Of a stretch of DNA of 64,000 nt, positions 3,949 through 62,278 are shown one piece after another; position 1 is the first letter of the stretch, and each line of letters opens with the position of its first letter. The DNA is from an uncultured Bacteroidales bacterium. GTDB lineage: Bacteria; Bacteroidota; Bacteroidia; Bacteroidales; GCA-2748055. The position numbers and the translations under genes are program-made. The notes under the pieces are model-generated. The model searched no databases. It was given only the letters and a program-made list of their open reading frames with translations, and was not told the origin of the DNA. The stretch lies in contig CAVZZV010000002.1 of assembly GCA_963779845.1 (NCBI GenBank), positions 53,140 through 117,139 on the forward strand. Reading direction: 5' to 3'.

Positions 3949-4341
3949 TTAAGTTTAAATTTTCTAATACAAATATAAAGAAAAGAAATTTAAGGAAGAT
4001 TTTTGAGATTGCAAAGGAGGAGTTAGGAGTTATTAAACTTCAAATCAAGGATATTGAAGAAAAACAAATACCTGAACTGCTGAAGAAACTGGAAAAAGCT
4101 GGTGCTCCGGCTATTATGGAATAGAGCCTGACAACTTTACTCACCAATGATTTCAAAGTAGCCAGAATCACCAGAAAACCTGACGCTGTTTTTTGATATA
4201 TTCTCAGTTTCCACGGACAATCCGCCACTGCAAATAACCAAGGGTCTGGTCTTGAATGGTAAGCTAAATTCTACCACTTCTCCTCCTGCAGCCAGTCCGG
4301 TTATTCTACGTTCAGAATCATTATTCGAGCGTGAGTCATAA

Positions 4342-47882: not shown

Positions 47883-50243
47883 ATGAGTTCAGATAAAAAA
47901 AAGAGCAATTATTATATCCGTATTTTCTGGTTGGTTATCCTTATTCCTCCGGTATTTATTTTCCTGATCTTCCTCCTGATTTCCATGGGGAAGCTGGGAA
48001 CCCTTCCCACTTTTGAAAGTCTTGAAAATCCCGAGAACAATCTGGCTTCTGAAATTTATACCGAGGACAAAAGGCTGCTTGGGAAATTTTTTGTCGAGAA
48101 CAGGACTTTCGCCAATTATGAAGACCTTTCCCCTTATCTGGTCAATGCCTTAATTGCCACAGAGGATATCCGGTTCGAGAAACATTCCGGCGTGGATGCC
48201 CGTGGACTGATGCGCGTTATCGTAAGGACGATTATCGGAGGACAAAATACCGGGGGAGGAAGCACACTTAGCCAGCAATTGGCCAAAAATCTTTTTAATA
48301 CCCGGGAAAACCAGCACATGAGTAAATTACGCAGGAGTATTGATCTGGTAATAATTAAACTTAAAGAGTGGAATACTGCTGTCCGGTTGGAGCGGTATTA
48401 TACTAAAAAAGAGATCCTGGTGATGTACCTTAACACCGTTTCATTTGGTCACGAAGCTTTTGGTATTAAATCGGCTTCCGATATTTTTTTCAGTTCCACG
48501 CCGGATTCATTGAACCTTCAGCAAGCAGCTACGCTGGTAGGGGTGCTTAAAGCTCCTACCTATTACAGTCCGATCCGGAATCCGGAAAATTCTATTCGTA
48601 GAAGAAACCTTGTTTTATCACAAATGGAAAAATATGACTTTATTGACGAAGCAAGGCGTGATTCTATAGCCCGGCTTCCCATTGAAATTAATTTTAATGC
48701 CCAGAGCCATACTTCCGGTCTGGGAACCCATTTCCGCACCTATTTAAGGAAGACACTGACTGCCGTAAAACCCGTTCGCGCAAACTATTACTCGTATGAC
48801 AGTTATCAGGAGGATTCTCTTCGCTGGGAGCGTGATCCTACCTATGGCTGGGTCAATAAAAACCCGAAACCCGATGGCACTCCCTATAATATCTTCACGG
48901 ATGGATTAAAAATATATACAACCATCAACTACAAGATGCAACAATATGCTGAAGAGGCGGTGTCGGAACATCTGGGCAGGTTATTGCAAAAAGAATTCTT
49001 TGCAGAAAAGAAGGGCCGAAAAAACGCACCATTCTCCAACGATCTCACATCTAAGGAGATAGAAGACATTATGGTTAGGTCCATGCGCAGGACAGACCGT
49101 TACGACATACTTAAGGCATCAGGAATGAGTCCGGATTCGATAAAGCTTGTCTTTAATACCAAAAGGAAGATGAAAGTTTTCACCTGGAATGGGGAAAGAG
49201 ATACTATTATGAGTCCCATGGACTCCGTCCGGTATTATAAATATTTTCTTCAGGTGGGAATGATGGCGATGGAACCCGGTACCGGACATGTAAAGGCATA
49301 TGTAGGGGGGCATAACAGTCGTTATTTTCAATACGATCATGTTACCCAGGGTAAAAGGCAGGTTGGATCGACCATTAAACCTTTTCTATATACCCTCGCC
49401 ATGCAGGAAGGGTATTCCCCCTGTTATCAGGTGGCAAATATCCCGGTGACCTTTGCCGTAAATGACACCACCTGGACACCCAAAAATTCAGGGAATTTCG
49501 ACATGGAGGGAAAAATGGTTACCCTGGAATGGGGCCTGGCCCATTCGGTGAACTACATCTCTGCATGGCTGGTTAAGAGACTGAATGCTCAGGCTGTTGT
49601 GGACATGATAAAAAAGATGGGGGTTAAGAGTAAGGTTGATCCCGTTCCTTCGGTTATCTATGGTACTTCTGATATCAGGCTCTCAGAAATGGTCGGGGCA
49701 TTCAACACTTTCCCCGGAAAGGGCATCTTTGTGGAACCTATATATATTACCCGTATTGAGGACAGGATGGGAACTGAAATTGGCTCTTTTCAACCAGTGA
49801 AAACAGAGTCAATCAGTGAAAAAACAGCTTATTTGATGACCCAATTATTGGGAAATGTGGTAAACCGGGGTACAGCGGGAAGATTAAGGTGGGTTTTCAA
49901 TCTTACAGCAGAAATGGGAGGGAAAACAGGTACTACCCAGAATCAGTCTGATGGCTGGTATATGGGAATTACCCCTAAACTTACTGCCGGAGTATGGGTT
50001 GGGGCAGAGGATCGTTCCGTACATTTTGATTACCTGGGAAAGGGTTCAGGCTCCTATATGGCCCTTCCTATCTATGGATATTTTATGCAGAAGGTATACG
50101 CCGATTCCACGCTGAACATAAGCCAGGAAGACCATTTTGAGAAACCGGAGGGATTCAATATGGTCCTTGATTGTCCGGATGTGGAGAAGAACGCCGGAGT
50201 GGTCCGTTCCAATTTGCATTATGAAGAGACCGATGAGTTTTAA
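47883..50243 (+). CDS. mrcA: Bifunctional penicillin-binding protein 1A (GT51 transglycosylase and transpeptidase)
   Basis: GT51 motifs are TEDIRFEKHSGVD and GGSTLSQQLAKN. Transpeptidase motifs are STIKP, SVN and KTGT. There is an N-terminal TM anchor. Confidence 0.9.
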   Translation: MSSDKKKSNYYIRIFWLVILIPPVFIFLIFLLISMGKLGTLPTFESLENPENNLASEIYTEDKRLLGKFFVENRTFANYEDLSPYLVNALIATEDIRFEKHSGVDARGLMRVIVRTIIGGQNTGGGSTLSQQLAKNLFNTRENQHMSKLRRSIDLVIIKLKEWNTAVRLERYYTKKEILVMYLNTVSFGHEAFGIKSASDIFFSSTPDSLNLQQAATLVGVLKAPTYYSPIRNPENSIRRRNLVLSQMEKYDFIDEARRDSIARLPIEINFNAQSHTSGLGTHFRTYLRKTLTAVKPVRANYYSYDSYQEDSLRWERDPTYGWVNKNPKPDGTPYNIFTDGLKIYTTINYKMQQYAEEAVSEHLGRLLQKEFFAEKKGRKNAPFSNDLTSKEIEDIMVRSMRRTDRYDILKASGMSPDSIKLVFNTKRKMKVFTWNGERDTIMSPMDSVRYYKYFLQVGMMAMEPGTGHVKAYVGGHNSRYFQYDHVTQGKRQVGSTIKPFLYTLAMQEGYSPCYQVANIPVTFAVNDTTWTPKNSGNFDMEGKMVTLEWGLAHSVNYISAWLVKRLNAQAVVDMIKKMGVKSKVDPVPSVIYGTSDIRLSEMVGAFNTFPGKGIFVEPIYITRIEDRMGTEIGSFQPVKTESISEKTAYLMTQLLGNVVNRGTAGRLRWVFNLTAEMGGKTGTTQNQSDGWYMGITPKLTAGVWVGAEDRSVHFDYLGKGSGSYMALPIYGYFMQKVYADSTLNISQEDHFEKPEGFNMVLDCPDVEKNAGVVRSNLHYEETDEF

Positions 50244-51982
50244 GCCAGCCTTCCGGGAAGGGCGGAAATCAACTCTCTCGTATAGGGGCTTCCGGGATGG
50301 CTGTAAATTGTTTCGGGAATTCCCTCCTCTTCAATTTTCCCATCCTTCATAATGATCATGCGGTCCGACATGTACTTTACCACTGCCAGATCATGGGAGA
50401 TAAAAATGTAGCTTAACCCGAAATCCCGCTTTAAATCGTTCAACAGGTTTAGGATCTGGGCCTGAACAGAAACATCAAGGGCAGATACGGATTCGTCCAG
50501 GATCAGGAATTCGGGTTCAGGGCACAGTGCCCTGGCAATACCAATCCTTTGCCGCTGTCCGCCTGAAAACTGATGGGGATATTTCTCAAGGTCTTTTCTG
50601 TTTAATTCCACCTTTTGAATAAGCTCAACGGCCCGGTCCTCGATTTCTCTTTTCGACAACCCGGGAAAATGTGTATGGATCACCTCCTTCATCATATTTC
50701 CGATGCTGATCGACGGATTCAGGGAGGAGTAGGGATCCTGGAACACCACCTGCACATTTTTGCGAAAGTTTTTCAATGCTCTTCCTTTTAGCTTTGCAAT
50801 ATTTTCTCCTTTGAAAAGGATATCCCCTGAATGGTTTTTCAGAAGTTTCAGAATGGTCTTTCCCAGGGTGGTTTTCCCACAGCCGGATTCCCCTACCAGT
50901 CCAAGGGTTTCTCCTCTGTGCAGGATAAGGCTGACATTATTCACTGCCCTGGTGGTTTCCTTTTTCAGATTGAATAAAGAAACTGAACGGAGATAGCTAA
51001 CGGAGAGATGCTTAATTTCGAGAAGAACTCCCGGGTTTTTCTCTTCTGCTTTTGCCCTCTCTGCCTTCCCGGCAGTTTTTGTTTCTTTTATTGTTCCCGG
51101 GGGCGGTGTTCCCTGTTCAAAATCCTCAATGGTAGGAAGTCTTGGAGGCTTTTCGTTCAGTGGGGGTTGACAGGCAAGCAATCCGCGGGTATATTCCGTT
51201 TGTGGATGGGTGAAAATTTGTTGCACAGGATTATGTTCAACCACCCTGCCGTTTCTCATAACGACCACTTCATCCGCAATCTCTCCAATCAAACGGAGAT
51301 CATGGGAGATAAACAATACCGAAATATTATATTCCGACTGGAGATCTTTTAAAAGTTTTATAATTCTTTTTTGAACGGTAACATCCAGGGCGGTGGTGGG
51401 CTCGTCAGCAATCAGCAGTTCGGGCCCGGTGGAAAGTGCCATGGCGATCATCACTCTTTGCCTCTGGCCCCCGCTCAGCTGATGAGGATAGGAATTATAG
51501 ATTCTCAAAGGATCTGGCATTTTCACCCGGGTAAAGAGCTCAAGAATATGAGTTTTACGATTATCACGATGGGTATCTTTATGCCTCTTCAACAGTTCAT
51601 CAATTTGTTCCCCGCATTTCATGGAAGGATTCAGGGAACTCATCGGCTCCTGGAAAATCATGGCGATCCTCTTGCCCCGGTAGTTATTCATCTCTTTTTT
51701 GTTGAGACTGAGAAGATCAACGGTCTTTTCTCCTTCGTGAAAGAGGATTTTACCCCCTGTGGAATTGAGTCCGGGGGGCAATAAACCCATGATTGAAAGT
51801 GCCGTCATGGATTTTCCTGAGCCCGATTCTCCAACTATGCCGCAAACGCGACCTCTGGGGACCGAAAAGTCTATTCCTGAAAGAATGGAGGAATCGGATT
51901 CTTTGACAGAGACGGATAAATTTTGGATTTCGAGAAGAAATGGAGGCATAAATAACGATATAAAGTATTTTATATAGGTCAA
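50240..51982 (-). CDS. ABC transporter ATP-binding protein with two fused ATPase domains (oligopeptide/microcin-type)
   Basis: It has Walker A GESGSGKS and GESGCGKT, and signatures LSGGQRQR and FSGGQRQR. The likely start is MPPFLLEIQNL at 51949. Confidence 0.85.
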   Translation of the reverse strand: MTYIKYFISLFMPPFLLEIQNLSVSVKESDSSILSGIDFSVPRGRVCGIVGESGSGKSMTALSIMGLLPPGLNSTGGKILFHEGEKTVDLLSLNKKEMNNYRGKRIAMIFQEPMSSLNPSMKCGEQIDELLKRHKDTHRDNRKTHILELFTRVKMPDPLRIYNSYPHQLSGGQRQRVMIAMALSTGPELLIADEPTTALDVTVQKRIIKLLKDLQSEYNISVLFISHDLRLIGEIADEVVVMRNGRVVEHNPVQQIFTHPQTEYTRGLLACQPPLNEKPPRLPTIEDFEQGTPPPGTIKETKTAGKAERAKAEEKNPGVLLEIKHLSVSYLRSVSLFNLKKETTRAVNNVSLILHRGETLGLVGESGCGKTTLGKTILKLLKNHSGDILFKGENIAKLKGRALKNFRKNVQVVFQDPYSSLNPSISIGNMMKEVIHTHFPGLSKREIEDRAVELIQKVELNRKDLEKYPHQFSGGQRQRIGIARALCPEPEFLILDESVSALDVSVQAQILNLLNDLKRDFGLSYIFISHDLAVVKYMSDRMIIMKDGKIEEEGIPETIYSHPGSPYTRELISALPGRLA

Positions 51983-52366
51983 AACTAAAAAAATATAATC
52001 TTACCATTACAATCAATATTTAATTTTTGGATAATATGTTTCAAGCTTACCCGTCTGATCGTTTTTTACACCTGCTGCTTTATGCATAAACATTACCTTC
52101 AACCTTAATCTCAAATTTAGATTTGCAACAGCTCCTACGAGCTTCATCAATTAGCCAGAACCCGCCTTTCTACCCTCTTAGGCAGGACCCCGGGTAAGGT
52201 ATTTGATAATAGCAATTGCCCTTTTTTAAGAATATTGTAAAAATTTCCGGTCGCTTTCCTCTTGCTTATGTTTTTGCGAACGCATACTTTCCAAGACTGC
52301 CCTATGTAGAACTAAACCTTCCAAATGTTCCCAATTGAGCAACTTTTTTTATGCATTTTAATTACG

Positions 52367-52374
52367 TATTTTTG
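52367..52374 (+). promoter_or_regulatory. -7 promoter box of three-gene module 1
   Basis: TATTTTTG lies within GTATTTTTGTAAAATCATTG. The same 20-mer, with 1 mismatch, precedes module 2 at 57728. Confidence 0.55.
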
Positions 52375-52409
52375 TAAAATCATTGTAAATACTTACTTAT
52401 TTGAGCAAC

Positions 52410-52751
52410 ATGTTAAACATCGGAAGCAAAATATCTTTACTCAGGAAAGAGAAAGGATGGTCGCAAAGCGACCTTGCAGAACAAATTAGCGCATCAAGGG
52501 AGATAATTGGAAAATACGAGCGTAACGAAAATTCACCTTCTCTTGAAATGGCTTTAAAAATGGCTAAAGCATTTGGCGTAACAGTTGATTTTCTTTTAGG
52601 TGAAGGCGAGTATTCTTCTTACGACCAAGATACCATTGACAGGATAAAAAGTATCCAGAAAATGGATACCAATACTAAATCGGTGTTGTTTAATGTAATT
52701 GACACCTACATACAAAATTTTAAAACAAAACAGGCGTTTGCCACAAAATAA
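52410..52751 (+). CDS. XRE-family helix-turn-helix transcriptional regulator (module 1)
   Basis: MLNIGSKISLLRKEKGWSQSDLAEQISASREIIGKYERNENSPSLEMALKMAKAFGVTVDFLLGE is a classic Cro/CI HTH. The start was chosen by alignment to the module-2 paralogue. Confidence 0.85.
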   Translation: MLNIGSKISLLRKEKGWSQSDLAEQISASREIIGKYERNENSPSLEMALKMAKAFGVTVDFLLGEGEYSSYDQDTIDRIKSIQKMDTNTKSVLFNVIDTYIQNFKTKQAFATK

Positions 52752-52758
52752 AAGGATT

Positions 52759-52977
52759 ATGAAACAAGTAGTTTTAAACGTACCGGACAACAAATACCCG
52801 TTCTTTATGGAACTGGTAAAAAGCCTCGGTTTTGTTAAAGTGCCTGACGAAGCTAAGTTGACAAAAAAAGAGAAGGAGTTTGTGGAAGGGACTAAAAATT
52901 CTCTCGAACAAGTGGAGCAACATTTGAAAGGAGAAATTAAGTTAAAAACCGCAGACCAGTTGTACAATGAGCTTTAA
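52759..52977 (+). CDS. Small acidic protein, putative antitoxin (module 1)
   Basis: 72 aa (MKQVVLNVPDNKYPFF...LKTADQLYNEL). It overlaps the toxin start by 11 nt. Its C-terminal third is similar to the module-2 protein. Confidence 0.55.
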   Translation: MKQVVLNVPDNKYPFFMELVKSLGFVKVPDEAKLTKKEKEFVEGTKNSLEQVEQHLKGEIKLKTADQLYNEL

Positions 52978-53299
52978 CATTTACACCACCGACTTTTTTG
53001 ACAAGGAACTGAAAAAGCTTTCCAAAAGATATCCGTCTGTAAAGAACGATTACAAAGCCCTTGTTAATTCCTTAAAAGAAGAACCCAAACAAGGACAGGC
53101 ACTTGGCAAGGATTGTTATAAAATCCGCATGGCTATTTCCTCAAAAGGTAAAGGCAAAAGCGGTGGAAGCCGTGTAATCTCCTGTGTTAAAATTATTGCT
53201 GAATCGGTTTTCTTACTGTCCATCTTTGATAAAGGAGATAAGGGAAATATTTCCGATAAAGAACTGGATAAGCTGCACCCAATAGATACTATTATGTAA
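52967..53299 (+). CDS. RelE/ParE-superfamily (HigB/Gp49-like) toxin (module 1)
   Basis: 110 aa: ...QGQALGKDCYKIRMAISSKGKGKSGGSRVISCVKI...VFLLSIFDKGDKGNISDKEL. Confidence 0.75.
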   Translation: MSFNIYTTDFFDKELKKLSKRYPSVKNDYKALVNSLKEEPKQGQALGKDCYKIRMAISSKGKGKSGGSRVISCVKIIAESVFLLSIFDKGDKGNISDKELDKLHPIDTIM

Positions 53300-53900
53300 C
53301 CCAATGCTAGTTACATCAGCTAATGTTGAAGCCCCACCAACCATGATATTCCATGCAGTATTGAAATCATCACCCCCTCCGTTTGCGGCAACATCTGCAA
53401 CTACTTCAATAAAACCAAGCCTTTCATCAACACCAGACTTTATACAGACCGGCCAGTTCAAAGAACTTCACTTCCATTTTAAAATTATCATTTTTTCTTT
53501 TAATTGAAAAAATATTTGGGCTTTCAGTTAAAAATTATTCAGTTAAAAGAAAAAGTTATGGCTGTTTTAACACACTACGGCATTTTTAACCGCTTAGGCA
53601 ACCCCCAAAGCCAGCGGGGGCAGGCAAGGTTTTTGGAGAAAAAATTTTTACGGATTTCGTTTCTGTGGATAGTTTCAGATCCTGGATAATTATCGGTTCA
53701 TACCACATAAAATTTTTTCTTCAAAACCTTTAGGCTTTACCTTGCGCGGGCATGGACGGTGGCTTTACCTTTGCGCTAAGCGGTTAAAATGAGCCTTCAG
53801 AGCTTTGACCTAGGTTTATCGGGGGATTGAGCCCGGTTCGAAGTGGTTTTCCCCGGTTTCAGGAAAGGGCCTGGTTCGAAGCGGCGGGCGAGCGGAGGGG

Positions 53901-53961
53901 CAAAAAAGACAGGGGGAACTTTACAAAATACCACTTAAATAAACAATTCATTTTGTAAAGT
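53901..53961 (-). terminator. 12-bp perfect hairpin plus T6 tract downstream of the ORF6N remnant
   Basis: ACTTTACAAAAT (53918-53929) pairs with ATTTTGTAAAGT (53950-53961). On the minus strand it is followed by ...CTGTCTTTTTTG. Confidence 0.5.
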
Positions 53962-54000
53962 GGCTGGATTTTTTGCCCTGGGGATGAGTTTGACTATGGA

Positions 54001-54560
54001 TTATTCCTTATCGTCGTGAGGTTTGTAGCCTATCTTTTTCCGGTTTTTCTGGTCAAATTCTTCCTGTTTGGCTTTTTCAAGTTGCTTCAGGTATTCAAAA
54101 ATCAGCATTATTTTATCGTCCTGCTCAATATCTTTCTTTTCAAGGTGTTCGAGCTTTTGCAATATTTCTCTGTGCGTTTCCACCAGTTCACGCATTTTCG
54201 TAAAAACCCTGATGATCTGGATATTCACCATAATTGCCCGGTCGCTGTTCAAAACACTTGACAACATGGCAACTCCCTGTTCTGTAAAAACCAACGGGGC
54301 TTTCCTTAATCCCATCTTTTCACTATTGGATATCACAATTTGTGATTTCCAATTTTCCATTTCTTCTTTGGTCATCTGGAATCATAAAATCTTCCGGAAA
54401 GCGTTTTATCATTGCGTCCTTACCGGCCTCATTTAATACCCTTGTTTCATACATCGTATAATTCGGCAAGGTCTCTGTCAATGCATCACCTTTATTGCCC
54501 CTTATCAGAGTATATTTTGGTGATGTATGTGTTTCAACCGGTGAATATTAATGCATTTTC
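54001..54560 (-). pseudogene. ORF6N (KilA-N-like) domain protein with several frameshifts in the N-terminal half
   Basis: ORF 54001..54375 reads MTKEEMENWKSQI...APLVFTEQGVAMLSSVLNSDRAIMVNIQIIRVF. Upstream pieces IRGNKVM / IDRDLAELYDV / ETRVLNEA...KRFPEDFM occur in three different frames. Confidence 0.7.
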
Positions 54561-54636
54561 TTTACGCATCATGTTTGTTTTAAAGTTATCAAAAATAGAT
54601 ATTATAAATTGAGGTTCGCAATTTGCGACACCATTT

Positions 54637-55026
54637 TCATTTCAACGGATGGAACATACCCAGCTCCTCTTTTAAATCATCCAGGTTTGCCCGGATATAC
54701 CGCTGCGTGGAGTAAATACTGGCATGACCGGCCATGTACTGCACTTCACGGATATTCTTTTCTTTTACCCACTGGCTGATGACACTTACCCGTATTTGTG
54801 TAAAACTGTTTAAGTATTCATGTTCTTGTTTTAGTTCCCGGAGCAGTTCCCGCATGGCATCTTTAATGTGCCCGCTGGTCCCGATGGTAATAAATAGCTT
54901 TTCAGATTTCTTGCCTTTCAGTTTCAGGAGCTTTGGGCGGATCCCGCTCATGTATTCCTGTAGCGGTAATATCTGGCTGGCATTGAGCTTTAAAACGCGA
55001 CCCTTTGGATTTATGGTTTTCTTTGA
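54637..55026 (-). pseudogene. Tyrosine recombinase/integrase, C-terminal remnant
   Basis: ...KGRVLKLNASQILPLQEYMSGIRPKLL...VQYMAGHASIYSTQRYIRANLDDL includes the catalytic-Tyr region. The N-terminal two thirds or so are absent. Confidence 0.7.
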
Positions 55027-55220
55027 TTATTCAATTAGTTGGGTTTATCGCTATTGGCGGAATATGGTTTATGAGAAAATGGGGGCTTTTTCTCTATGTG
55101 TTATTGACGATTGTTATTCAGGTAGAAATGTTTTTGGTAAGTAACTGGGCGCCTTACTTACTGGTGGTTCCTATAATTATCATTGGTTCTAATCTGTTAT
55201 TATACAAACAATTTAAATGA
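55005..55220 (+). CDS. Hypothetical small membrane protein (possibly a fragment)
   Basis: 71 aa with two hydrophobic helices. Its start overlaps the integrase remnant. The stop abuts the stop of the convergent ORF at 55221. Confidence 0.3.
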   Translation: MDLWFSLIIQLVGFIAIGGIWFMRKWGLFLYVLLTIVIQVEMFLVSNWAPYLLVVPIIIIGSNLLLYKQFK

Positions 55221-55685
55221 TTAGCTGATTAATATTGAGGCTATTGTTCTTTCTTTAATTTCCGTCTTTCCTTCAATAGAATATTCAAAATTTGGATACA
55301 ACAAGCTTGTTATAACAATATACCTGTTTCCTTCTAATATAAATTTATAGAAACGGTAGTTATCAGTTGTAAGAAAGCCGCCTTTCTTTTTATAAAAGCG
55401 GCTTTGGTGTATTTCTATTTTTTCTAGGTTAGAAGGTGAAATAATAGTTTCTTTTCCTTCGTCATAAAGCACTTTAACCTTTCTATTGATAAAATAATAA
55501 TCTAAGTGAAGATAAATATGCATAATACTAATAATAAAAAATGCGGCGTAAACTACATACTCAGCAATATTATTTTCAATAGGATTAGCCTTAATATACA
55601 GCCAAGTTATGAACATGATAAACCAAAAGATTATATATGGAAATAAATGTTTAACATGCTTTTTTACAGTTACACGCTGTTCCAT
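55221..55685 (-). CDS. Hypothetical membrane protein (2 TM segments plus a small soluble domain)
   Basis: 154 aa. The start codon lies 4 nt after the stop of the S74-domain remnant. Confidence 0.4.
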   Translation of the reverse strand: MEQRVTVKKHVKHLFPYIIFWFIMFITWLYIKANPIENNIAEYVVYAAFFIISIMHIYLHLDYYFINRKVKVLYDEGKETIISPSNLEKIEIHQSRFYKKKGGFLTTDNYRFYKFILEGNRYIVITSLLYPNFEYSIEGKTEIKERTIASILIS

Positions 55686-55689
55686 CTAT

Positions 55690-56120
55690 TTATTCCTTAT
55701 TTTTTATTTCTAATTCATCTAATCTAATCAAAACGCTGTTAAGTATTTTTTCATTATACTCTGTATTCATTTGATATTCTTTTAGTATGTCGTTCTGCTT
55801 ATTAATCAAAGTTTGTTGGTCTTTTAGTGCTTCTATCAAAATTGGAATAAGTTTATAATAATAAACCATCTTAAATCCGGCACTATCAGTTGTAACAAGC
55901 TCTGGGTAGACTTTTTCAACCTCCTGTGCTATAACACCGATATCTTTCTTCTCAGCATTTAAAAGTGTATCTTTCCAATTAAAAGTATATCCGTTTAAGG
56001 TTGATACCTTTTATAATGAACTATCAATTGGTGTAATATTTTCTTTTAAATTTTTATCACTGTAGAACGAATTATAACCACCATTCTCGAACCAATTTAT
56101 CCAATCTTTTGTTTGTTTGA
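55690..56120 (-). pseudogene. Tail-fibre / peptidase S74 intramolecular-chaperone domain protein, C-terminal remnant with an in-frame stop
   Basis: The minus frame reads SDKNLKENITPIDSSL*KVSTLNGYTFNWKD...KDIGVIAQEVEKVYPELVTTDSAGFKMVYYYKLIPILIEALKDQQ. The 5' side is cut by the IS3 left end. Confidence 0.65.
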
Positions 56121-56147
56121 ACTTGCAATAGTTTTCCGGACATTTTA

Positions 56148-56972
56148 TTAAGCAACTAATTGATTTATTAAATTCTCTTTTTTGTTTTTAATTGATGTTT
56201 TTATTGTCGTATGAATCCTGTTTACATTGTACCACGCTTCAATGTACTCAAAAACAGATAATTGTGCTTCTTTAAAAGTCTTGTAATTATTTTGATAAAC
56301 GTGTTCAACTTTCAATGTTTTAAAGAAGCTTTCAGCAACTGCATTATCCCAACAATCTCCTTTACGACTCATGCTTCTTTGTACAAGCTTATATGATGAC
56401 AGCAGGTTTTTAAACTCATTGCAGGCATATTGGACACCTCGATCAGAATGAAAAATAAGCACTTGGGTAATGGGTCGGTTCCTGATGGCCATCTTCCATG
56501 CAGGAATGGTTGTAAAAATCGCCTTTAAAGATTTGCTAAAAGCCCATCCAATAACTTTTCTATCATAAAGATCTATTATAACAGTCAAATAAAGCCACCC
56601 TTGGTAGGTTTTAATATAAGTGATATCAGAGACCCATACTTGCCCTGATCTGCTCACATTAAAGTCTCTGTTGAGCCTATTCTCAACCACCGGATACTTA
56701 TGCTTGGAATCTGTTGTAATAATCCACTTTTTTCGTATTACGCTCTGCATATTTTGCTTTTTCATTAATCGAGCTACTTTCGGTCGTGATACGTGTATTC
56801 CTTCTTCTAAAAGTGCTAAGGTAACCCTGGGACTGCCATAGGTCTTCTTGCTGAGCTCGTATATCTTTTTTATGCGATATGATAACTCATCGTTCAATTT
56901 ATCCCGCTTACCCGGTTTATGCACCAGCCAACCGTAATATGAACTCCTGCTTACCTTTAAAACTTTACACAT
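56148..56972 (-). CDS. IS3 OrfB (DDE integrase-core transposase)
   Basis: 274 aa: ...VWVSDITYIKT...IFHSDRGVQYA...DNAVAESFFKTLKVE. The frame continues upstream to the slippery site. Confidence 0.9.
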   Translation of the reverse strand: MCKVLKVSRSSYYGWLVHKPGKRDKLNDELSYRIKKIYELSKKTYGSPRVTLALLEEGIHVSRPKVARLMKKQNMQSVIRKKWIITTDSKHKYPVVENRLNRDFNVSRSGQVWVSDITYIKTYQGWLYLTVIIDLYDRKVIGWAFSKSLKAIFTTIPAWKMAIRNRPITQVLIFHSDRGVQYACNEFKNLLSSYKLVQRSMSRKGDCWDNAVAESFFKTLKVEHVYQNNYKTFKEAQLSVFEYIEAWYNVNRIHTTIKTSIKNKKENLINQLVA

Positions 56973-57004
56973 CTTCTCAATGGGAAATATGGAGTCGTTT
57001 GCCC

Positions 57005-57316
57005 TTATGAATTGGAATATTTGCCATCGCTCTTGGAGAAAATGCTTACAGCTTTTTTTAAGATGTCACGTTCTATCTGTGCATCGTAAAGCTCCTTCTT
57101 CAATCTGGCTATCTCTTTTTGATCTTCTGTCTGGATCTTATTTCCCTGACCAGGAAAACTTGCTTCCAGATGTTTGTTTGCTTCCCGTCTCCAACGGTAG
57201 ATCAGATCAGCTCGGATATCCAGTTCAGCTGCTAGTGCTGTGTAGTCCTCACGATTATTACTCAGTTCCAGTACCATCTGTTTAAACTCTCGATCAAATT
57301 TTCTTCTTTTTTTCAT
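57005..57316 (-). CDS. IS3 OrfA (HTH)
   Basis: 103 aa: MKKRRKFDREFKQMVLELS...ADLIYRWRRE, then a leucine-zipper-like tail. Confidence 0.9.
   Translation of the reverse strand: MKKRRKFDREFKQMVLELSNNREDYTALAAELDIRADLIYRWRREANKHLEASFPGQGNKIQTEDQKEIARLKKELYDAQIERDILKKAVSIFSKSDGKYSNS
57052..57060 (-). promoter_or_regulatory. Programmed -1 ribosomal frameshift slippery site
   Basis: The minus strand reads TTAAAAAAAGC (A7G). The -1 frame reads ...KKSCKHFLQERWQIFQFIRANDSIFPIEKMCKVLKVSR and joins OrfB. Confidence 0.75.
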
Positions 57317-57352
57317 AACAGTAAAATTAAGTTTTTTAGCTTAACTTAATGT

Positions 57353-57620
57353 CCAGATAAAGGTAGCAGTTGCATTGCTGTGGCTTTGGTCAATGCTTCG
57401 TGTTTATTACATTTTTCTTTTAACTGAATAAACTCTATGGTGTCGCCATTGGCTTTGCAACCAAAGCAGTTAAAGGTGTTTGTTTCGGGTATATTTTTAG
57501 GCTCGGCTCTTTTTCTTCATGGAAAGGGCATTTGAGCATGTGGTTTCGGTTGGCTTGTAGTCCGTAGTGGTTTAGTACTGTTTCAATGCTTAAACGCTGC
57601 TTTATTTCTTGGATTTCCAT
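57353..57620 (-). pseudogene. CHC2 zinc-finger DNA primase N-terminal remnant (frameshifted, truncated by IS3)
   Basis: MEIQEIKQRLSIETVLNHYGLQANRNHMLKCPFHEEKEPSLKIYP is followed, after a 1-nt shift, by ETNTFNCFGCKANGDTIEFIQL.... The frame runs into the IS3 right end. Confidence 0.7.
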
Positions 57621-57728
57621 TGTTTAATTTTTTTGAAAATTTCAACCTTAATCTATAAGTGACAAATTTAACGAATAAATAAAATAAAATGCAAATTTTT
57701 AGGTTTTGTTTTTCATCTTTAAATGAAG

Positions 57729-57736
57729 TATTTTTG
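57729..57736 (+). promoter_or_regulatory. -7 promoter box of three-gene module 2
   Basis: TATTTTTG lies within GTATTTTTGTAAAAACATTG, 43 nt upstream of the ATG at 57779. Confidence 0.55.
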
Positions 57737-57778
57737 TAAAAACATTGATTTTTATAGCATTTTAATAACTTATCAGTT

Positions 57779-58120
57779 ATGAAAATAGGAGATAAAATAA
57801 GTAGCTTGCGCAAGCAAAAAGGATTGAACCGAGATGAACTCGGTAAAATCGTGGGAACTTCTGGTGCAGTAATTGGAAGATATGAAAGAGACGAGATTAC
57901 TCCATCGGTTGAAATTGCAAGAAAAATGGCTGATGCATTGGAAGTTTCTTTGGACTATCTGACTGGTAGCACCAATTTTGTGATACAGGATAAAAAAATG
58001 CTTTACCGCTTGGAGCTTTTACAAAAAATAGCACAACCGGAAAGGGACAGGATTCTTTTAGTTATGGATTCTTTATTAAGAGATGCACAGATTAATTTAA
58101 TACAACAAAAACTGGCTTAA
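57779..58120 (+). CDS. XRE-family helix-turn-helix transcriptional regulator (module 2)
   Basis: MKIGDKISSLRKQKGLNRDELGKIVGTSGAVIGRYERDEITPSVEIARKMADALEVSLDYLTG. Confidence 0.85.
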   Translation: MKIGDKISSLRKQKGLNRDELGKIVGTSGAVIGRYERDEITPSVEIARKMADALEVSLDYLTGSTNFVIQDKKMLYRLELLQKIAQPERDRILLVMDSLLRDAQINLIQQKLA

Positions 58121-58122
58121 TT

Positions 58123-58356
58123 ATGAACTTACAGTATATTTCAGACAACAGGGGGAAAACAACTGGTGTGTTTATTCCGATACAAGAATGGGAAGGACTT
58201 AAATCTAAATTCAAAGGCTTAGAAGAAGTGGAACTCGGCGAACAATCGAAAGAAGAGATTTTGCAAGGCTTACAACAGGCTGTTGAAGAAATGAACCTTG
58301 TAAAACAAGGCAAATTAAAAGCCCGTGACGCTAAAGACTTGTTAAATGAGTTATAG
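58123..58356 (+). CDS. Small protein, putative antitoxin (module 2)
   Basis: 77 aa. It lies 2 nt after the XRE stop and overlaps the toxin start by 11 nt. The C-terminus ...VKQGKLKARDAKDLLNEL parallels module 1. Confidence 0.55.
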   Translation: MNLQYISDNRGKTTGVFIPIQEWEGLKSKFKGLEEVELGEQSKEEILQGLQQAVEEMNLVKQGKLKARDAKDLLNEL

Positions 58357-58673
58357 AGTTAAAACTATCCCATATTTTGACAGGCAAGCCAAACGGCTTA
58401 CCCGTAAATTCAAGTCTTTTAAAACGGAACTTTCAGAACTGTTCGATTCCTTAGAGGTTGACCCAACGCAAGGCACTGCACTTAGGCAATGACTGTTATA
58501 AAATCCGTGTTGCCATAAAATCCAAAGGTAAAGGCAAGTCTGGCGGTGCAAGAGCAATTACCCATGTAATTGCTGTTCGTGAACATGTTTATTTGCTGAC
58601 CGTTTTTGATAAGTCCGAAAAAGACAATATTTCCGATAAAGAACTTCAGGAACTCTTGAAAATGATTGAATAA
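58346..58673 (+). pseudogene. RelE/ParE-superfamily toxin (module 2) inactivated by a 1-nt insertion
   Basis: MSYRVKTIPYFDRQAKRLTRKFKSFKTELSELFDSLEVDPTQGTALRQ* is followed, in the +1 frame, by GNDCYKIRVAIKSKGKGKSGGARAITHV.... Module 1 has CTTGGC where this copy has CTTAGGC. Confidence 0.8.
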
Positions 58674-58675
58674 AA

Positions 58676-58703
58676 AAGCCCGGATGATGAACCGGGCTTT
58701 TCC
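58676..58703 (+). terminator. Rho-independent terminator after module 2
   Basis: AAGCCCGG, loop ATGATGAA, then CCGGGCTT followed by TTCC. It lies 3 nt after the stop. Confidence 0.7.
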
Positions 58704-58768
58704 TTTATATCATACAAAATAATCGTTTCCTTTTCTCAAACAAAACTCCTCGCATTTGCTTTAAAGAC

Positions 58769-59050
58769 TTATCTATTCTTGGCGCAAGCAAACAGGTTAA
58801 TATTAATTCTTCGCCTGTTTTGAGTTTTACTACTGCATAGTAAAAACCCTCTATAGCCAACATAATGAAAATTGCTGTTTTTATAAAGTGCAGGCGACAA
58901 ATAAATGATTACCTTTTCAATTTCATCATTCTTGTAAATCGTTTCTTCTCCACCTTTACGCCTGTTTAATTCAGTATTTCGAACCTCGTATTCTTCGCCT
59001 TTATTTTTAGCTAAATATGTTAAATGTAGATATAGTGAAGCTGGAAGCAT
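58769..59050 (-). CDS. Hypothetical protein
   Basis: 93-aa ORF with no motifs. It lies downstream of the Rhs toxin remnant, so it is a possible orphan immunity gene. Confidence 0.25.
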   Translation of the reverse strand: MLPASLYLHLTYLAKNKGEEYEVRNTELNRRKGGEETIYKNDEIEKVIIYLSPALYKNSNFHYVGYRGFLLCSSKTQNRRRININLFACAKNR

Positions 59051-59854
59051 CTAATAGCAAAACTATTCCAAAAACACTTGAACAATTATTTATCAAAACT
59101 AAGAAAATACAAGACATTAATCACCTACCATTCATAAGAATGAACTAGGTAAATGTAAAGGTCAAAAAATTTCTAATGATTAATCTGATAACATTCTATC
59201 TGCCTGATACCACCTATTTCTTATAGCATTTTCAAAGTTAAATCTGATATGAAATCATTTCCTAAAGGAAACAACAAATTATCGTACATATATTCTAAGC
59301 CTGCCGAAATTCTCCAACGGCAGCTCCTGCAACTGCTCCATAAGGACCTCCAATAGCTGCACCTGTGCCAATAGACAGCAAGAAGTGACTCCTAATTCGA
59401 TAGCCACATCGTCCAATTGCTAATTTCGCCACTTACGATAGGCATTGATCATAAAATAACCCTATGCATAAAGGAGTCCAATGCAGGTTCCAAGTCCTAC
59501 CACCAAAGTTTTAAAAGCAACATAAAGACCTACTATAAGTTGAGCTGAACTGTGCCGTATGTTTCCTATCTTATTGCACTATTCGGCCAAACATTCGATA
59601 TTCCAATTACCAATTTGAGTTAAACCAATTGCTCCGGATACATAGTTTGCCGCACTTCCGACCTCATTTAGTGCCATAGGTGGACGCCAATCACCTCCCC
59701 CGCTATTTGCGGCATAGAAACCTAGAAAAACTATCCCCAAAAAAACTCGATATTTTTCTTGAATAAGAATTATTAGACTCCCTAATATGACGATAGTCCC
59801 TTTGCCATTTATCATGCATTAGTGGTTTTTCCAGTCCTTAGGCTCAAGCTTATG

Positions 59855-60890
59855 TCAATTACGCCTCAGGTAATTACATGTTATTTGTTCGTTTGACCAA
59901 GTATTTACGAATCCATGTTCAGGATTTACGTAATAATATTGATTTGGCATTGCAACTGCATAGATGCAGGAAACTTCGTATGCCATAACCATCCCGGTAT
60001 CCGGTCGATGAACTTTCAGAATAGGCATAACCGGCCCCGCTGCCAGTCCCGCCCCTACCGTCAGCGTGGTCATTTTGAGAAATAATATATTGTTGCAGCT
60101 CTTACCCAATCGGTGAAATCTACATAGTATCTTTTTCCAAACCTGTCATGCGTCCCAAATACATATCCGGAGGAATTCGTATACAAAAGCGGGTTGTTCA
60201 AACAGTATGAATAACGGTTATAGCTCTGCGTGTTCGCCGGATCCGCGATCACTATGTCGGCACTGAGGAAGCGGGCCACCAGGGGATCGAATATGCTGCC
60301 ATTATTTTTATCAGGCCAAAGTAATCGAGGTGTTCATGGCCTGTATAGCCCCTGTCAAATTTTAGTTTCTCCGGTATATCGCTGTAGGTCCAATCCTCCG
60401 GGTTACGCCTTCTGCCCCAGGCATCAAAGCTCATTTCTTCATATACCTCCCCGTCCTCGTCCGTGATCACATCGATGGAGCCCAGGTGATCGGTATGTAT
60501 ATAAAAGATGGCCTGCACATCTTCGGTCTGCATTCCCGTAACATAACCATGAGAAAAGCCCCGGTGGTTCACCAGCCCGTTACCATAGGTATATTGTTCT
60601 ATCTGGCCTCTTGCATTCATTGTATTGGCGCCCCAAATGGACAATTGGTCGGATTCACGTTTTATTTCACCAAGATAACCATTATTATTGTAAATATACT
60701 CCATGGAGAGCTGAGAGGGGAACGTTAACCCGCTTAGCCGCCCGTACTGGTCATATTCAAACGATTCGACGAAGCTTTCCTGCCCGATTGTTTCGGTAAG
60801 GGAATCCAGTCGTGACAGGTTATCATAAGCATACGAGACGGATATACTATCAGGGCCGCTTTTATATAATGCGATTATAAGCTCTTCACA
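59855..60890 (-). pseudogene. Rhs/YD-repeat protein, C-terminal remnant (last repeats, core domain and variable C-terminal tip) with at least 2 frameshifts
   Basis: YAYDNLSRLDSLTE...FEYDQYGRL, YIHTDHLGSIDVITDEDGEVYEEMSFDAWGRRRN, RGYTGHEHLDYFGLI, then (shifted) NNGSIFDPLVARFLSADIVIADPANTQSYNRYSYCLNNPLLYTNSSGY. The N-terminal bulk is missing. Confidence 0.8.
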
Positions 60891-60913: not shown

Positions 60914-62278
60914 TTACCCAAACAACACCTTCGGTATCTCCTGTACCTTTGAAACAAAGACAATATCCATGTTGAATCTGGAAAAGTCGAGTCCTTTCTG
61001 ACTGTATTTAGGGACAATCATGCGATCAAATCCCAGTTTCATGGCTTCGGAAATTCGCTGATCCAGCCGGTTTACAGGACGAATTTCGCCGGAAAGGCCG
61101 ACCTCCCCGGCCAGGCAGGTTTTATTGGCTATAGCAATATCTACTGTCGAGGAAAGGAGGGAGGCGATAACGGCCAGATCCGTGGCCGGATCGTCAATCC
61201 TGATCCCGCCCGCGATGTTCAGAAAAACATCTTTCGCGATCAGTTTAAAATTGGCTCGTTTTTCAAGGACCGCCAGGAGCATGTTGAGTCTCCTCATATC
61301 GAATCCGGTGGCGGATCGCTGAGGCGTAGGGTATGCCGAACTGCTAACCAGTGCCTGAATTTCGACCAGGATGGGCCGTATGCCTTCCAGGGTGGCGGAT
61401 ACTGCGACCCCGCTCAGATTGTCGGGATTCTGACTTATTAATATTTCTGAAGGGTTGGCTATTTCCCGCAGTCCCGTACCCTGCATTTCATAAACTCCGA
61501 TTTCGCTGGTCGAGCCAAAACGGTTTTTCACTGCCCGTAAAATCCGGTAAAGATGATGTTGGTCCCCTTCAAATTGAAGAACTGTATCCACAATGTGCTC
61601 AAGGACCTTAGGTCCCGCCAGGGAACCGTCTTTGGTGATATGTCCTATAATAATTACCGGAGTATGGGTCTGTTTTGAAAATTTCAGCAATTGTGCAGCA
61701 CATTCCCGTACCTGGGAAACACTTCCCGGAGAAGATTCTACATATTGGGAATGAATCGTTTGCACAGAATCAATAATCAGGAGCCCTGGTTTTTCTGCAT
61801 TGGATATGCTAAGAATGTTTTCAAGGTTGGTCTCGGTATGGATGAGGCACTCACTCTCTTTAAGAGAGCCGGTCCTTTCCGCCCTTAGACGTATTTGTTG
61901 TGCACTCTCCTCACCTGAAATATAGAGCGTTTTTAATTGATTGAGCTTAAGGGCGATCTGCAGAACCAGGGTGGATTTTCCGATTCCGGGTTCCCCTCCA
62001 ATCAGTACCAGCGAACCCGGTACGATGCCGCCACCAAGAACCCGGTTGAATTCATGGTTGAGGGTATCAATCCTGGTAAAATGCTGAAGATCGATATCCC
62101 GAAGCAAAGCGGGCTTGGACTTTTCCCCACTCTCCGTGCTAAAAATACTTTCTTTCCCGGTGGAAATAATTTCCTCCACATAGGTATTCCATTGGTTGCA
62201 GGAGGGGCACCGGCCAATCCACTTTGCAGAATCGGCGCCACAATTCTGACAAACATATACGGTTTTTTTCTTTGCCAT
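60914..62278 (-). CDS. radA: DNA repair protein RadA/Sms
   Basis: 454 aa with the zinc finger CQNCGADSAKWIGRCPSCNQWNT, Walker A GGEPGIGKST, the KNRFG motif and a Lon-like C-terminus. Confidence 0.95.
   Translation of the reverse strand: MAKKKTVYVCQNCGADSAKWIGRCPSCNQWNTYVEEIISTGKESIFSTESGEKSKPALLRDIDLQHFTRIDTLNHEFNRVLGGGIVPGSLVLIGGEPGIGKSTLVLQIALKLNQLKTLYISGEESAQQIRLRAERTGSLKESECLIHTETNLENILSISNAEKPGLLIIDSVQTIHSQYVESSPGSVSQVRECAAQLLKFSKQTHTPVIIIGHITKDGSLAGPKVLEHIVDTVLQFEGDQHHLYRILRAVKNRFGSTSEIGVYEMQGTGLREIANPSEILISQNPDNLSGVAVSATLEGIRPILVEIQALVSSSAYPTPQRSATGFDMRRLNMLLAVLEKRANFKLIAKDVFLNIAGGIRIDDPATDLAVIASLLSSTVDIAIANKTCLAGEVGLSGEIRPVNRLDQRISEAMKLGFDRMIVPKYSQKGLDFSRFNMDIVFVSKVQEIPKVLFG

Follow-up and report, generated by a model that had tools for sequence, protein, structure and literature searches.

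Two decaying putative repressor-antitoxin-toxin cassettes in an uncultured Bacteroidales genome and the apparently optional role of their XRE regulator genes

The window considered in this paper is a stretch of 64,000 nt from an uncultured Bacteroidales bacterium (GCA-2748055; assembly GCA_963779845.1, contig CAVZZV010000002.1, positions 53,140-117,139 of the forward strand), and all coordinates given below are window positions unless a surveyed locus is named. Two three-gene modules are present in it, each composed of a gene for an XRE-type helix-turn-helix (HTH) regulator, a gene for a small protein and a gene related to the PF06296 (HigB-2-like) toxins. They are flanked by a housekeeping gene for an ABC-transporter ATPase (50240-51982) on one side and by a RadA-like gene (60914-62278) on the other. 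A previous sequence-only reading had likened the modules to the tripartite paaR-paaA-parE toxin-antitoxin (TA) systems. To our knowledge, three-gene TA systems with a separate regulator comprise few cases, mainly from Proteobacteria and Firmicutes. The features of the two modules are as follows.

52345-53276, + strand: extent of cassette 1 (blastn, 87% DNA identity to the metagenome cassette L161)
52366-52385, + strand: 20-mer of module 1, the -7 box TATTTTTG (52367-52374) plus TAAAATCATTG, the start-site and putative operator segment
52410-52751, + strand: XRE1, HTH regulator, 113 aa, HTH_3 domain
52759-52977, + strand: small protein 1, putative antitoxin, 72 aa, type A N-terminal module, conserved C-terminus ...KGEIKLKTADQLYNEL
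52967-53299, + strand: toxin 1, PF06296 HigB-2-like, open reading frame of 110 aa, native only to 53276
57705-57708, + strand: TTTG, a possible -33 element for module 2, placed 20 nt upstream of its -7 box
57728-57747, + strand: 20-mer of module 2, the -7 box TATTTTTG (57729-57736) plus TAAAAACATTG
57779-58120, + strand: XRE2, HTH regulator, 113 aa, HTH_3 domain
58123-58356, + strand: small protein 2, putative antitoxin, 77 aa, type B (RelB/Phd-like) N-terminus, conserved C-terminus ...KQGKLKARDAKDLLNEL
58346-58673, + strand: toxin 2, PF06296 pseudogene with a one-base insertion at about 58481, repaired product 108 aa
58674-58705, + strand: hairpin with T-tract resembling an intrinsic terminator, closing cassette 2

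The small open reading frame (ORF) starts 7 nt after the XRE stop codon in module 1 and 2 nt after it in module 2, and it overlaps the toxin gene by 11 nt in both. These short gaps and exact overlaps, and the XRE/small-protein/toxin layout itself, had been described beforehand and were confirmed by the ORF coordinates and the domain matches. The regulator-antitoxin-toxin order, the small gaps, the 11-nt overlaps and the single upstream -7 box correspond to one predicted transcription unit, and a terminator follows toxin 2 only. The two XRE proteins share 35% identity and are both HTH regulators, as proposed, with a measured length of 113 aa each where 113-114 aa had been given. Toxin 1 and the repaired toxin 2 share 52% identity. 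The identical architecture ascribed to the two modules therefore holds for the gene order and fails for the toxins, as both toxin genes are damaged.

Relatives of the modules were collected in two surveys, and the L-numbers used here (L002, L161 and so on) are the labels of the loci compared. In the toxin-seeded scan, which covered one genome per species, at least 591 loci with a toxin relative were found, nearly all of them from Bacteroidota and allies, and the best 80 were analysed. In the XRE-seeded metagenome scan, for which five XRE2-like sequences served as queries, at least 446 stretches were found to encode XRE2-like proteins, and again the best 80 were analysed; adequate downstream sequence was available for 63 of these loci and adequate upstream sequence for 58.

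Of the 80 toxin-seeded loci, 73 have a small ORF that shares exactly 11 nt with the beginning of the toxin gene. An XRE gene lies upstream in only 8 loci and is missing from the remaining 72, and the upstream neighbours of the XRE-less pairs are unrelated housekeeping genes. Therefore, the core is a widespread two-gene pair that stands alone. The small protein is accordingly an antitoxin candidate, a predicted partner that travels with the toxin, and the earlier suggestion that this protein rather than the XRE protein is the toxin's partner is upheld by the same counts.

Both small proteins fall in one family, which is defined by its C-terminal half. The C-terminal motif G-K-(L/I)-K...(L/F)-L-N/D-E-L (...GKLKxxxAxxLLNEL) is present in 65 of 70 such small ORFs, and 49 of the 70 end in LNEL or LDEL. 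At least 2 types of N-terminus occur among the toxin-seeded loci. Type A (MKVLLDIKDNK..LMEVLK.L.YVK) includes small protein 1, and type B (M.LQ.I.DSKGK.TGVFIPI.EW), which is RelB/Phd-like, includes small protein 2. No BLAST similarity was detected between the two small proteins. The two types account for the unrelated N-termini and similar C-termini noticed by eye. Small protein 1 matches no Pfam or NCBIfam family, and its 241 database homologues are all recorded as 'hypothetical' and lack a Pfam domain. Small protein 2 has a RelB-like N-terminal match in Pfam, below threshold. PADLOC gave no matches for the small proteins or the toxins. The C-terminal segment of the antitoxin (GK-L/I-K...LLNEL) would be the part that binds and neutralises the toxin. 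With hhalign, the type A N-terminal module was found to resemble antitoxins paired with PIN, ParE, MazF and YoeB toxins (probability 86%), and it may be a shared, uncharacterised Bacteroidota antitoxin domain. N-termini of about 30 aa with a similar strand-helix-strand arrangement were seen in L094, L095, L126, L151, L154 and L159, and the YoeB case is annotated as DUF2683.

Additionally, the XRE gene has been cleanly and independently deleted from at least 4 loci of the small protein 1 clade. What remains is the -7 box and the gene's 3' end, without its body, ahead of an intact antitoxin-toxin pair.

L002, 4760-4795: -7 box joined straight to CCATAAAATGAAGGGATT-ATG at a TTTG microhomology
L005, 4750-4804, and L027, 3125-3209: 7-20 C-terminal XRE codons left directly after the -7 box
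L013, 4290-4382: TATTTTTGTAAAAGCATTGTAAAC... joined to ...AAACAAAACAGGCGTTTGCCACAAAA, then the antitoxin start codon

As these loci keep the promoter in front of the pair, the promoter within the 20-mer is predicted to drive the antitoxin and toxin genes. The tolerance of an intact pair with no XRE gene in cis also argues against the XRE protein as the neutraliser. The XRE gene thus appears to be an optional, dispensable regulatory head. At another locus, L072 (3736-4784), the XRE gene lacks its first 39 or so codons and abuts a 276-aa ORF that resembles a transposase by eye, which would be another route to XRE loss.

Where the three genes occur together, they behave as a unit. Close relatives of module 1, with XRE proteins 85-92% identical to XRE1, and relatives of module 2 with an identical small protein keep all three genes together; XRE1-type cassettes occur in L161-L171 and XRE2-type cassettes in L186-L193. 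For cassette 1, homology begins 21 nt upstream of the 20-mer and ends within the 3' end of the toxin gene (blastn). XRE2-type cassettes are found in unrelated contexts, beside a T2SSE ATPase gene or a GAF sensor gene, and their homology to the window is confined to about 57701-58677, from the -33/-7 promoter to the terminator. This confinement suggests that in these two lineages the three genes and their promoter act as one transferable unit; it favours a functional link and counts against explanations in which they are mere neighbours.

Parts of the unit are also exchanged. The closest XRE2 relatives (70-86% identity; L083, at 4339-4871, and L084-L086) share with module 2 the XRE lineage and the first 31 or so antitoxin codons, whereas the antitoxin tail is different (Unstab_antitox) and the toxin belongs to the ParE family (PF05016). 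Their DNA homology to the window ends at 58217, within the antitoxin gene. The position of this junction implies that the antitoxin tail and the toxin swap together.

Both toxins of the window were recognised by PF06296 (cutoff 27 bits), with 34.2 bits for toxin 1 and 39.4 bits for the C-terminal fragment of toxin 2. A profile of the toxin family matches the V. cholerae HigB-2 structures 5ja8 and 5jaa (E about 5e-8), and over profile positions 26-105 its matches comprise 5ja8, 5ja9, 8a0x and 9tv9 (E 3e-8 to 5e-8). In a published survey, PF06296 toxins are ribosome-dependent mRNases with the usual order toxin then antitoxin (PMC11980606). By family membership, the product of an intact toxin gene would be a ribosome-dependent mRNA nuclease.

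Toxin 2 had been taken as an intact protein of about 110 aa, which is not the case. It is split over two frames, 58346-58492 (48 aa) and 58458-58673 (71 aa), by a single extra base, GCA-C-TTAGGC, placed at about 58481 by DNA alignment with relatives. Removal of one base near 58480-58484 gives a toxin of 108 aa, and contigs with an identical small protein 2 carry an intact 108-aa PF06296 toxin. A sequencing error was considered and is unlikely, as the independent ENA contig L188 (97% identical) shares the extra base, although L188 has further indels, so that its support on this point is not strong. The insertion also creates CTT-AGG-C at 58481, the heptamer known from Ty1-type +1 slippage, at which a shift by +1 would lead back into exactly the conserved frame. 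Programmed frameshifting was nevertheless judged unlikely, because AGG is the commonest Arg codon in the long ORFs of the window (10.8 per 1000) and is hence no 'hungry codon'; toxin 2 was therefore treated as carrying a plain inactivating insertion. The 110-aa frame described for toxin 1 is indeed open, although its native 7-codon end has been replaced. Its last 7 residues are HPIDTIM where every homologue has ...LKAAGLL, and DNA homology to the related cassette ends at the breakpoint 53276/53277, which indicates that the last 7 codons come from unrelated DNA. A look-up gave no database record of the exact toxin 1 protein.

Taken as a whole, we consider it fairly probable that the modules are facultative paaR-paaA-parE-like cassettes with an optional repressor, which persist here as decaying remnants in a graveyard of mobile elements. 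Each would be a diverged copy of a mobile cassette of about 1 kb, common in Bacteroidota, in which a single promoter of the Bacteroidota type precedes an XRE repressor gene, a small antitoxin gene and a HigB-2-family toxin gene, with the antitoxin-toxin pair as the functional core. The conserved C-terminus of the antitoxin would bind and neutralise the toxin, and the exchangeable N-terminal module would have another role, such as dimerisation or DNA binding. The XRE protein would be a repressor similar to RstR, CI and PaaR2, probably binding at or beside the promoter and start-site region. Its family would be native to Bacteroidota integrative elements, in which it usually faces the primase gene of the element. 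TA pairs of several families would repeatedly have been taken up behind it, the resulting three-gene cassettes would have gone on to spread as wholes, and repeated deletion of the XRE gene would leave the promoter before the pair, in keeping with an optional head and not an obligatory third component. In the window both cassettes appear to be decaying, through the frameshift of toxin 2 and the replaced C-terminus of toxin 1.

Several points weigh against this reading. No recognisable toxin lies downstream of the XRE gene in 47 of 63 XRE loci (75%), and in 33 of 58 (57%) the XRE gene is faced by a divergent gene of the DnaG-type primase family, so that the main target of the XRE protein may be the replication genes of the element rather than the TA genes. 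The XRE-seeded survey, limited to the best 80 loci, favours XRE2-like proteins through the pattern IGRYERDE. Upstream of XRE homologues outside the two lineages of the window, conservation is limited to the generic -7 box TAnnTTTG. The small protein might have a DNA-binding domain of its own, which would make the XRE protein redundant; the AlphaFold model of small protein 1 (36 homologues) is poor, with a pLDDT of 67 and a pTM of 0.36. Also, toxin 1 may or may not have lost its activity with the change of its tail.

The family to which the XRE proteins belong bears on the first of these points. Against the NCBIfam RstR model (NF041951, cutoff 80 bits), XRE1 scores 84.3 and XRE2 78.6, with about 104-106 of 108 model positions aligned. 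Among PDB structures, SinR and the ICEBs1 regulator match best; PADLOC gave only generic HTH matches, CapH as the best and RmrA. The three-gene order is real. An XRE gene accompanies only the 8 toxin loci mentioned above and a small ORF plus toxin directly follows the XRE gene in 16 of 63 XRE loci. The toxins in these 16 loci comprise 8 ParE/RelE (PF05016), 3 PF06296, 3 PemK/MazF, 1 YoeB and 1 PIN. Two kinds of primase partner occur: proteins of about 900 aa in which a CHC2 zinc finger is combined with a Toprim domain, and stand-alone homologues of their C-terminal half, about 540 aa long. These counts suggest that the XRE family primarily regulates a family of integrative elements and that the slot behind it has captured diverse TA pairs. 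The 'dedicated' regulator of the sequence-only reading is thus not supported, given the frequent primase partners, the many loci with no toxin and the five toxin families that follow the gene. Its tripartite reading survives in part: the gene order and the compact, operon-like head agree with it, and a constant dedicated regulator does not. The 540-aa family has no confident Pfam domain and is 37-55% identical to the C-terminal half of the 900-aa element primases; members divergent from an XRE gene are seen in L102 (2268-3854), L125, L159 and L167 (974-2638, - strand).

From the same data it can be argued that the XRE protein is the immunity-type repressor of the element, comparable to RstR or to ImmR of ICEBs1, that it targets the primase promoter, and that the TA pair is self-regulated cargo. 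Its co-transcription with the XRE gene would then be incidental, and functionally there would be no three-part system. This explanation draws on the primase-facing and toxin-free XRE loci and on the RstR match; module 2 itself lies opposite a primase fragment, and in the XRE1-type loci L167-L171 an integrase gene, a primase C-terminal homologue and a small gene occupy one strand, with the XRE cassette divergent from them. The survival of the TA pair after XRE deletion is also in its favour. It accords less well with the cassettes in L161-L166 and L186-L193, where no primase is nearby and homology covers only the cassette and its promoter, with the gaps of 2-7 nt, which leave no room for a separate promoter, and with the retention of the XRE promoter before the antitoxin gene in the XRE-deleted loci. 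We regard it as possible and somewhat doubtful, and the facultative cassette is preferred.

The promoter region provides a further line of evidence. TAnnTTTG is taken here to be the -7 box of Bacteroidota, after the consensus of Bacteroides promoters; a sigma-70 promoter scan is uninformative for this phylum. That the same 20-mer precedes both modules was confirmed, with a start one base to the left of the coordinate first given. The sequence GTATTTTTGTAAAA[T/A]CATTG has exactly two copies in the 64 kb, even when up to 3 mismatches are allowed, and the two 130-nt upstream regions share a 19/20 match, better than any obtained from 300 dinucleotide shuffles (maximum 17). As only 3 of 57 TAnnTTTG boxes in the window continue with TAAAA, the 20-mer is not a generic promoter within the window, a possibility that had been named as fatal to the idea. 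The 19-mer TATTTTTGTAAAATCATTG is identical in the XRE1-lineage loci L161-L164 and the XRE2-lineage loci L081, L186 and L189-L193, which come from different samples; it is kept with one mismatch in the XRE-deleted locus L013, and the module 2 20-mer of the window carries a derived T-to-A change. The proposal that the promoter or operator motif is conserved despite protein divergence was therefore sustained, with a 19-nt core identical in both XRE lineages and in independent metagenomes.

Relatives of the XRE2 lineage carry TAAAATCATTGATTT after the -7 box, which forms the palindrome AAATCA-T-TGATTT. In L083 (AATCA-G-TGATT) and L084 (AATTA-G-TAATT) the sequence is altered and the palindrome is kept, a pattern consistent with an operator. 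The XRE1 lineage has these bases within a direct repeat, TTGTAAA-N4-TTGTAAA. Apart from the XRE2-lineage palindrome, none of the inverted or direct repeats seen as candidate operators at the window level is conserved in relatives. Transcription should start within the 11 nt that follow the -7 box, and in the XRE1 and XRE2 lineages the motif is, as judged from its conservation, functional beyond a generic promoter. Its segment may be the XRE operator, and the two modules may cross-regulate.

It could instead be held that the 20-mer is a coincidence of two AT-rich Bacteroidota promoters, with function limited to the -7 box. Upstream of most other XRE homologues, TAnnTTTG is the only recurring part and is followed by differing bases, and the exact 19-mer also has 14 matches in viral contigs, at unrelated sites mostly lacking a following ORF and never upstream of an XRE gene. 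Given the shuffling result, the identity of the 19-mer across lineages whose XRE proteins are only 35% identical, and the palindrome kept in L083 and L084 despite sequence change, such a coincidence is improbable.

Two further repeats were observed near these promoters. A direct repeat, TTGAGCAAC, brackets the module 1 promoter (52335-52348 and 52401-52414), with one copy where cassette homology begins on the left (52345) and a second immediately before the XRE1 start codon; it is absent from L161. In many XRE-homologue lineages (for example L103, L141, L154, L160, L102 and L156), an inverted repeat of fixed position and varying sequence lies right after the -7 box, and such repeats could be lineage-specific operators or 5'-leader hairpins.

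Among known systems, higBA-2 of V. cholerae shares the toxin family PF06296. There, the toxin gene leads and the XRE-HTH protein serves as antitoxin, whereas here the antitoxin gene comes first and the XRE gene is separate, optional and upstream; unlike HigA-2, the antitoxin is a non-HTH protein of 68-77 aa with no Pfam family. By gene order, antitoxin type and the optional XRE gene, the modules do not appear to be classical HigBA systems. An arrangement in which the XRE protein plays the antitoxin part of HigA-2 towards HigB-2 and the small protein is an accessory, for instance a chaperone or adaptor, is suggested by the weak matches of the XRE proteins to the antitoxin models HipB, MqsA and HigA and by the prevalence elsewhere of toxin-first PF06296 pairs with XRE-type HigA (PMC11980606, Table 1), but is highly improbable, since 72 of 80 toxin loci have the small protein and no XRE gene, XRE-deleted derivatives keep an intact toxin, five unrelated toxin families are found with a single XRE family whose C-terminal domain is conserved and does not co-vary with the toxin, and it is the C-terminus of the small protein that swaps with the toxin.

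The closest system by mode of working appears to be paaR2-paaA2-parE2, carried by CP-933P, a cryptic prophage of E. coli O157:H7, which also has the order regulator, small antitoxin and toxin in one operon and an HTH repressor separate from the antitoxin. There too, the genes lie in a regulatory region of a mobile element and are oriented divergently to others of that element. PaaR2 acts as a CI-like repressor of the prophage, and paaA2-parE2 is embedded in the immunity region (PMC8630535). The systems differ in several ways. The toxin is a ParE gyrase poison in one and a PF06296 HigB-2-like protein in the other, although the XRE2-lineage relatives L083-L086 do carry ParE-family PF05016 toxins. 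The divergent partner is ydaS-ydaT (cro/cII-like) in the paaR2 system and a primase gene here. The XRE gene is no constant part of the present system and is absent from about 90% of the loci with the TA pair. PaaR2 and PaaA2 were not among the PDB matches at E <= 0.01, and no direct comparison with those sequences was made. By this comparison, the modules resemble that family in working and would not be members of it.

The regulators RstR (CTX phage), ImmR (ICEBs1), SinR and CapH are, like the XRE proteins, small and built of two parts: an XRE HTH at the N-terminus is followed by about 45 aa of helical C-terminal region. The cutoff of the RstR model is passed by XRE1 and narrowly missed by XRE2. 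The gene rstR lies divergent to rstA, and the XRE genes are likewise divergent to a replication gene of the element. On the other side, identity to the characterised repressors is low, no partner protease of the ImmA or CapP kind was found near the modules, and the hosts are Bacteroidota integrative elements where that of RstR is a filamentous phage. The omega-epsilon-zeta system also begins with a separate DNA-binding regulator and has an antitoxin with no recognised DNA-binding domain. Omega has a ribbon-helix-helix fold and is a constant part of the system, and the zeta toxin is a kinase; regulator fold, toxin kind and regulator constancy thus set it apart from the present modules.

A wider and rather unlikely extension, offered as speculation, is that the RstR-like XRE gene and its promoter form a portable head of Bacteroidota mobile elements, by which PF06296, ParE/RelE, MazF, YoeB and PIN pairs are placed under a repressor and become addiction or defence cassettes. 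Cassettes that share a genome, like the two in the window, would then form a cross-regulated network, and the antitoxins would consist of a shared, undescribed N-terminal module of about 30 aa with toxin-specific tails.

Around the cassettes extends an island of mobile-element debris, about 7 kb long, whose other features are listed here.

54001-54375, - strand: ORF6N fragment, truncated
54637-54951, - strand: integrase C-terminal fragment
55221-55685, - strand: unassigned ORF of 154 aa, in the debris downstream of the toxin 1 breakpoint
56148-57316, - strand: IS3-family element, orfA (HTH_Tnp_1) and orfB (rve)
57435-57620, - strand: primase N-terminal fragment, 61 aa, DnaG-type CHC2 zinc finger, divergent from XRE2
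60252-60704, - strand: RHS-repeat fragment

Past the breakpoint of toxin 1, the region 53277-55700 consists of unrelated DNA with short ORFs and mobile-element debris. In L161-L166 an ORF6N gene follows the intact toxin after about 310 nt, which indicates that about 400 nt were replaced or inserted in the window. The primase fragment ends beside the IS3 element, and the rest of the primase and of its element is missing; intact homologues of about 900 aa occupy the corresponding position in L083, L110, L054 and L079. A search at seed 9 detected no terminal inverted repeats for the IS3 element. Past module 2, small Gly-rich ORFs (59279-59815, - strand) and the RHS fragment may be remnants of a polymorphic-toxin locus. 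An Rfam scan of 51900-60300 gave no matches.

In both modules the XRE and antitoxin genes are intact and the toxin is damaged, which fits decay after the host elements had degenerated. Loss of the toxin with retention of the antitoxin is the usual decay route of TA loci. As decaying remnants, both copies would probably no longer poison the cell. The XRE proteins and antitoxins that survive in the two modules might still have effects in trans. The locus illustrates how three-gene TA systems may form and break down, through the capture of at least 5 toxin families, movement as a unit and loss of the XRE gene. It also points to a very common antitoxin family of Bacteroidota, undescribed and annotated only as 'hypothetical', whose members would be the partners of HigB-2-type toxins in the reverse of the textbook order.

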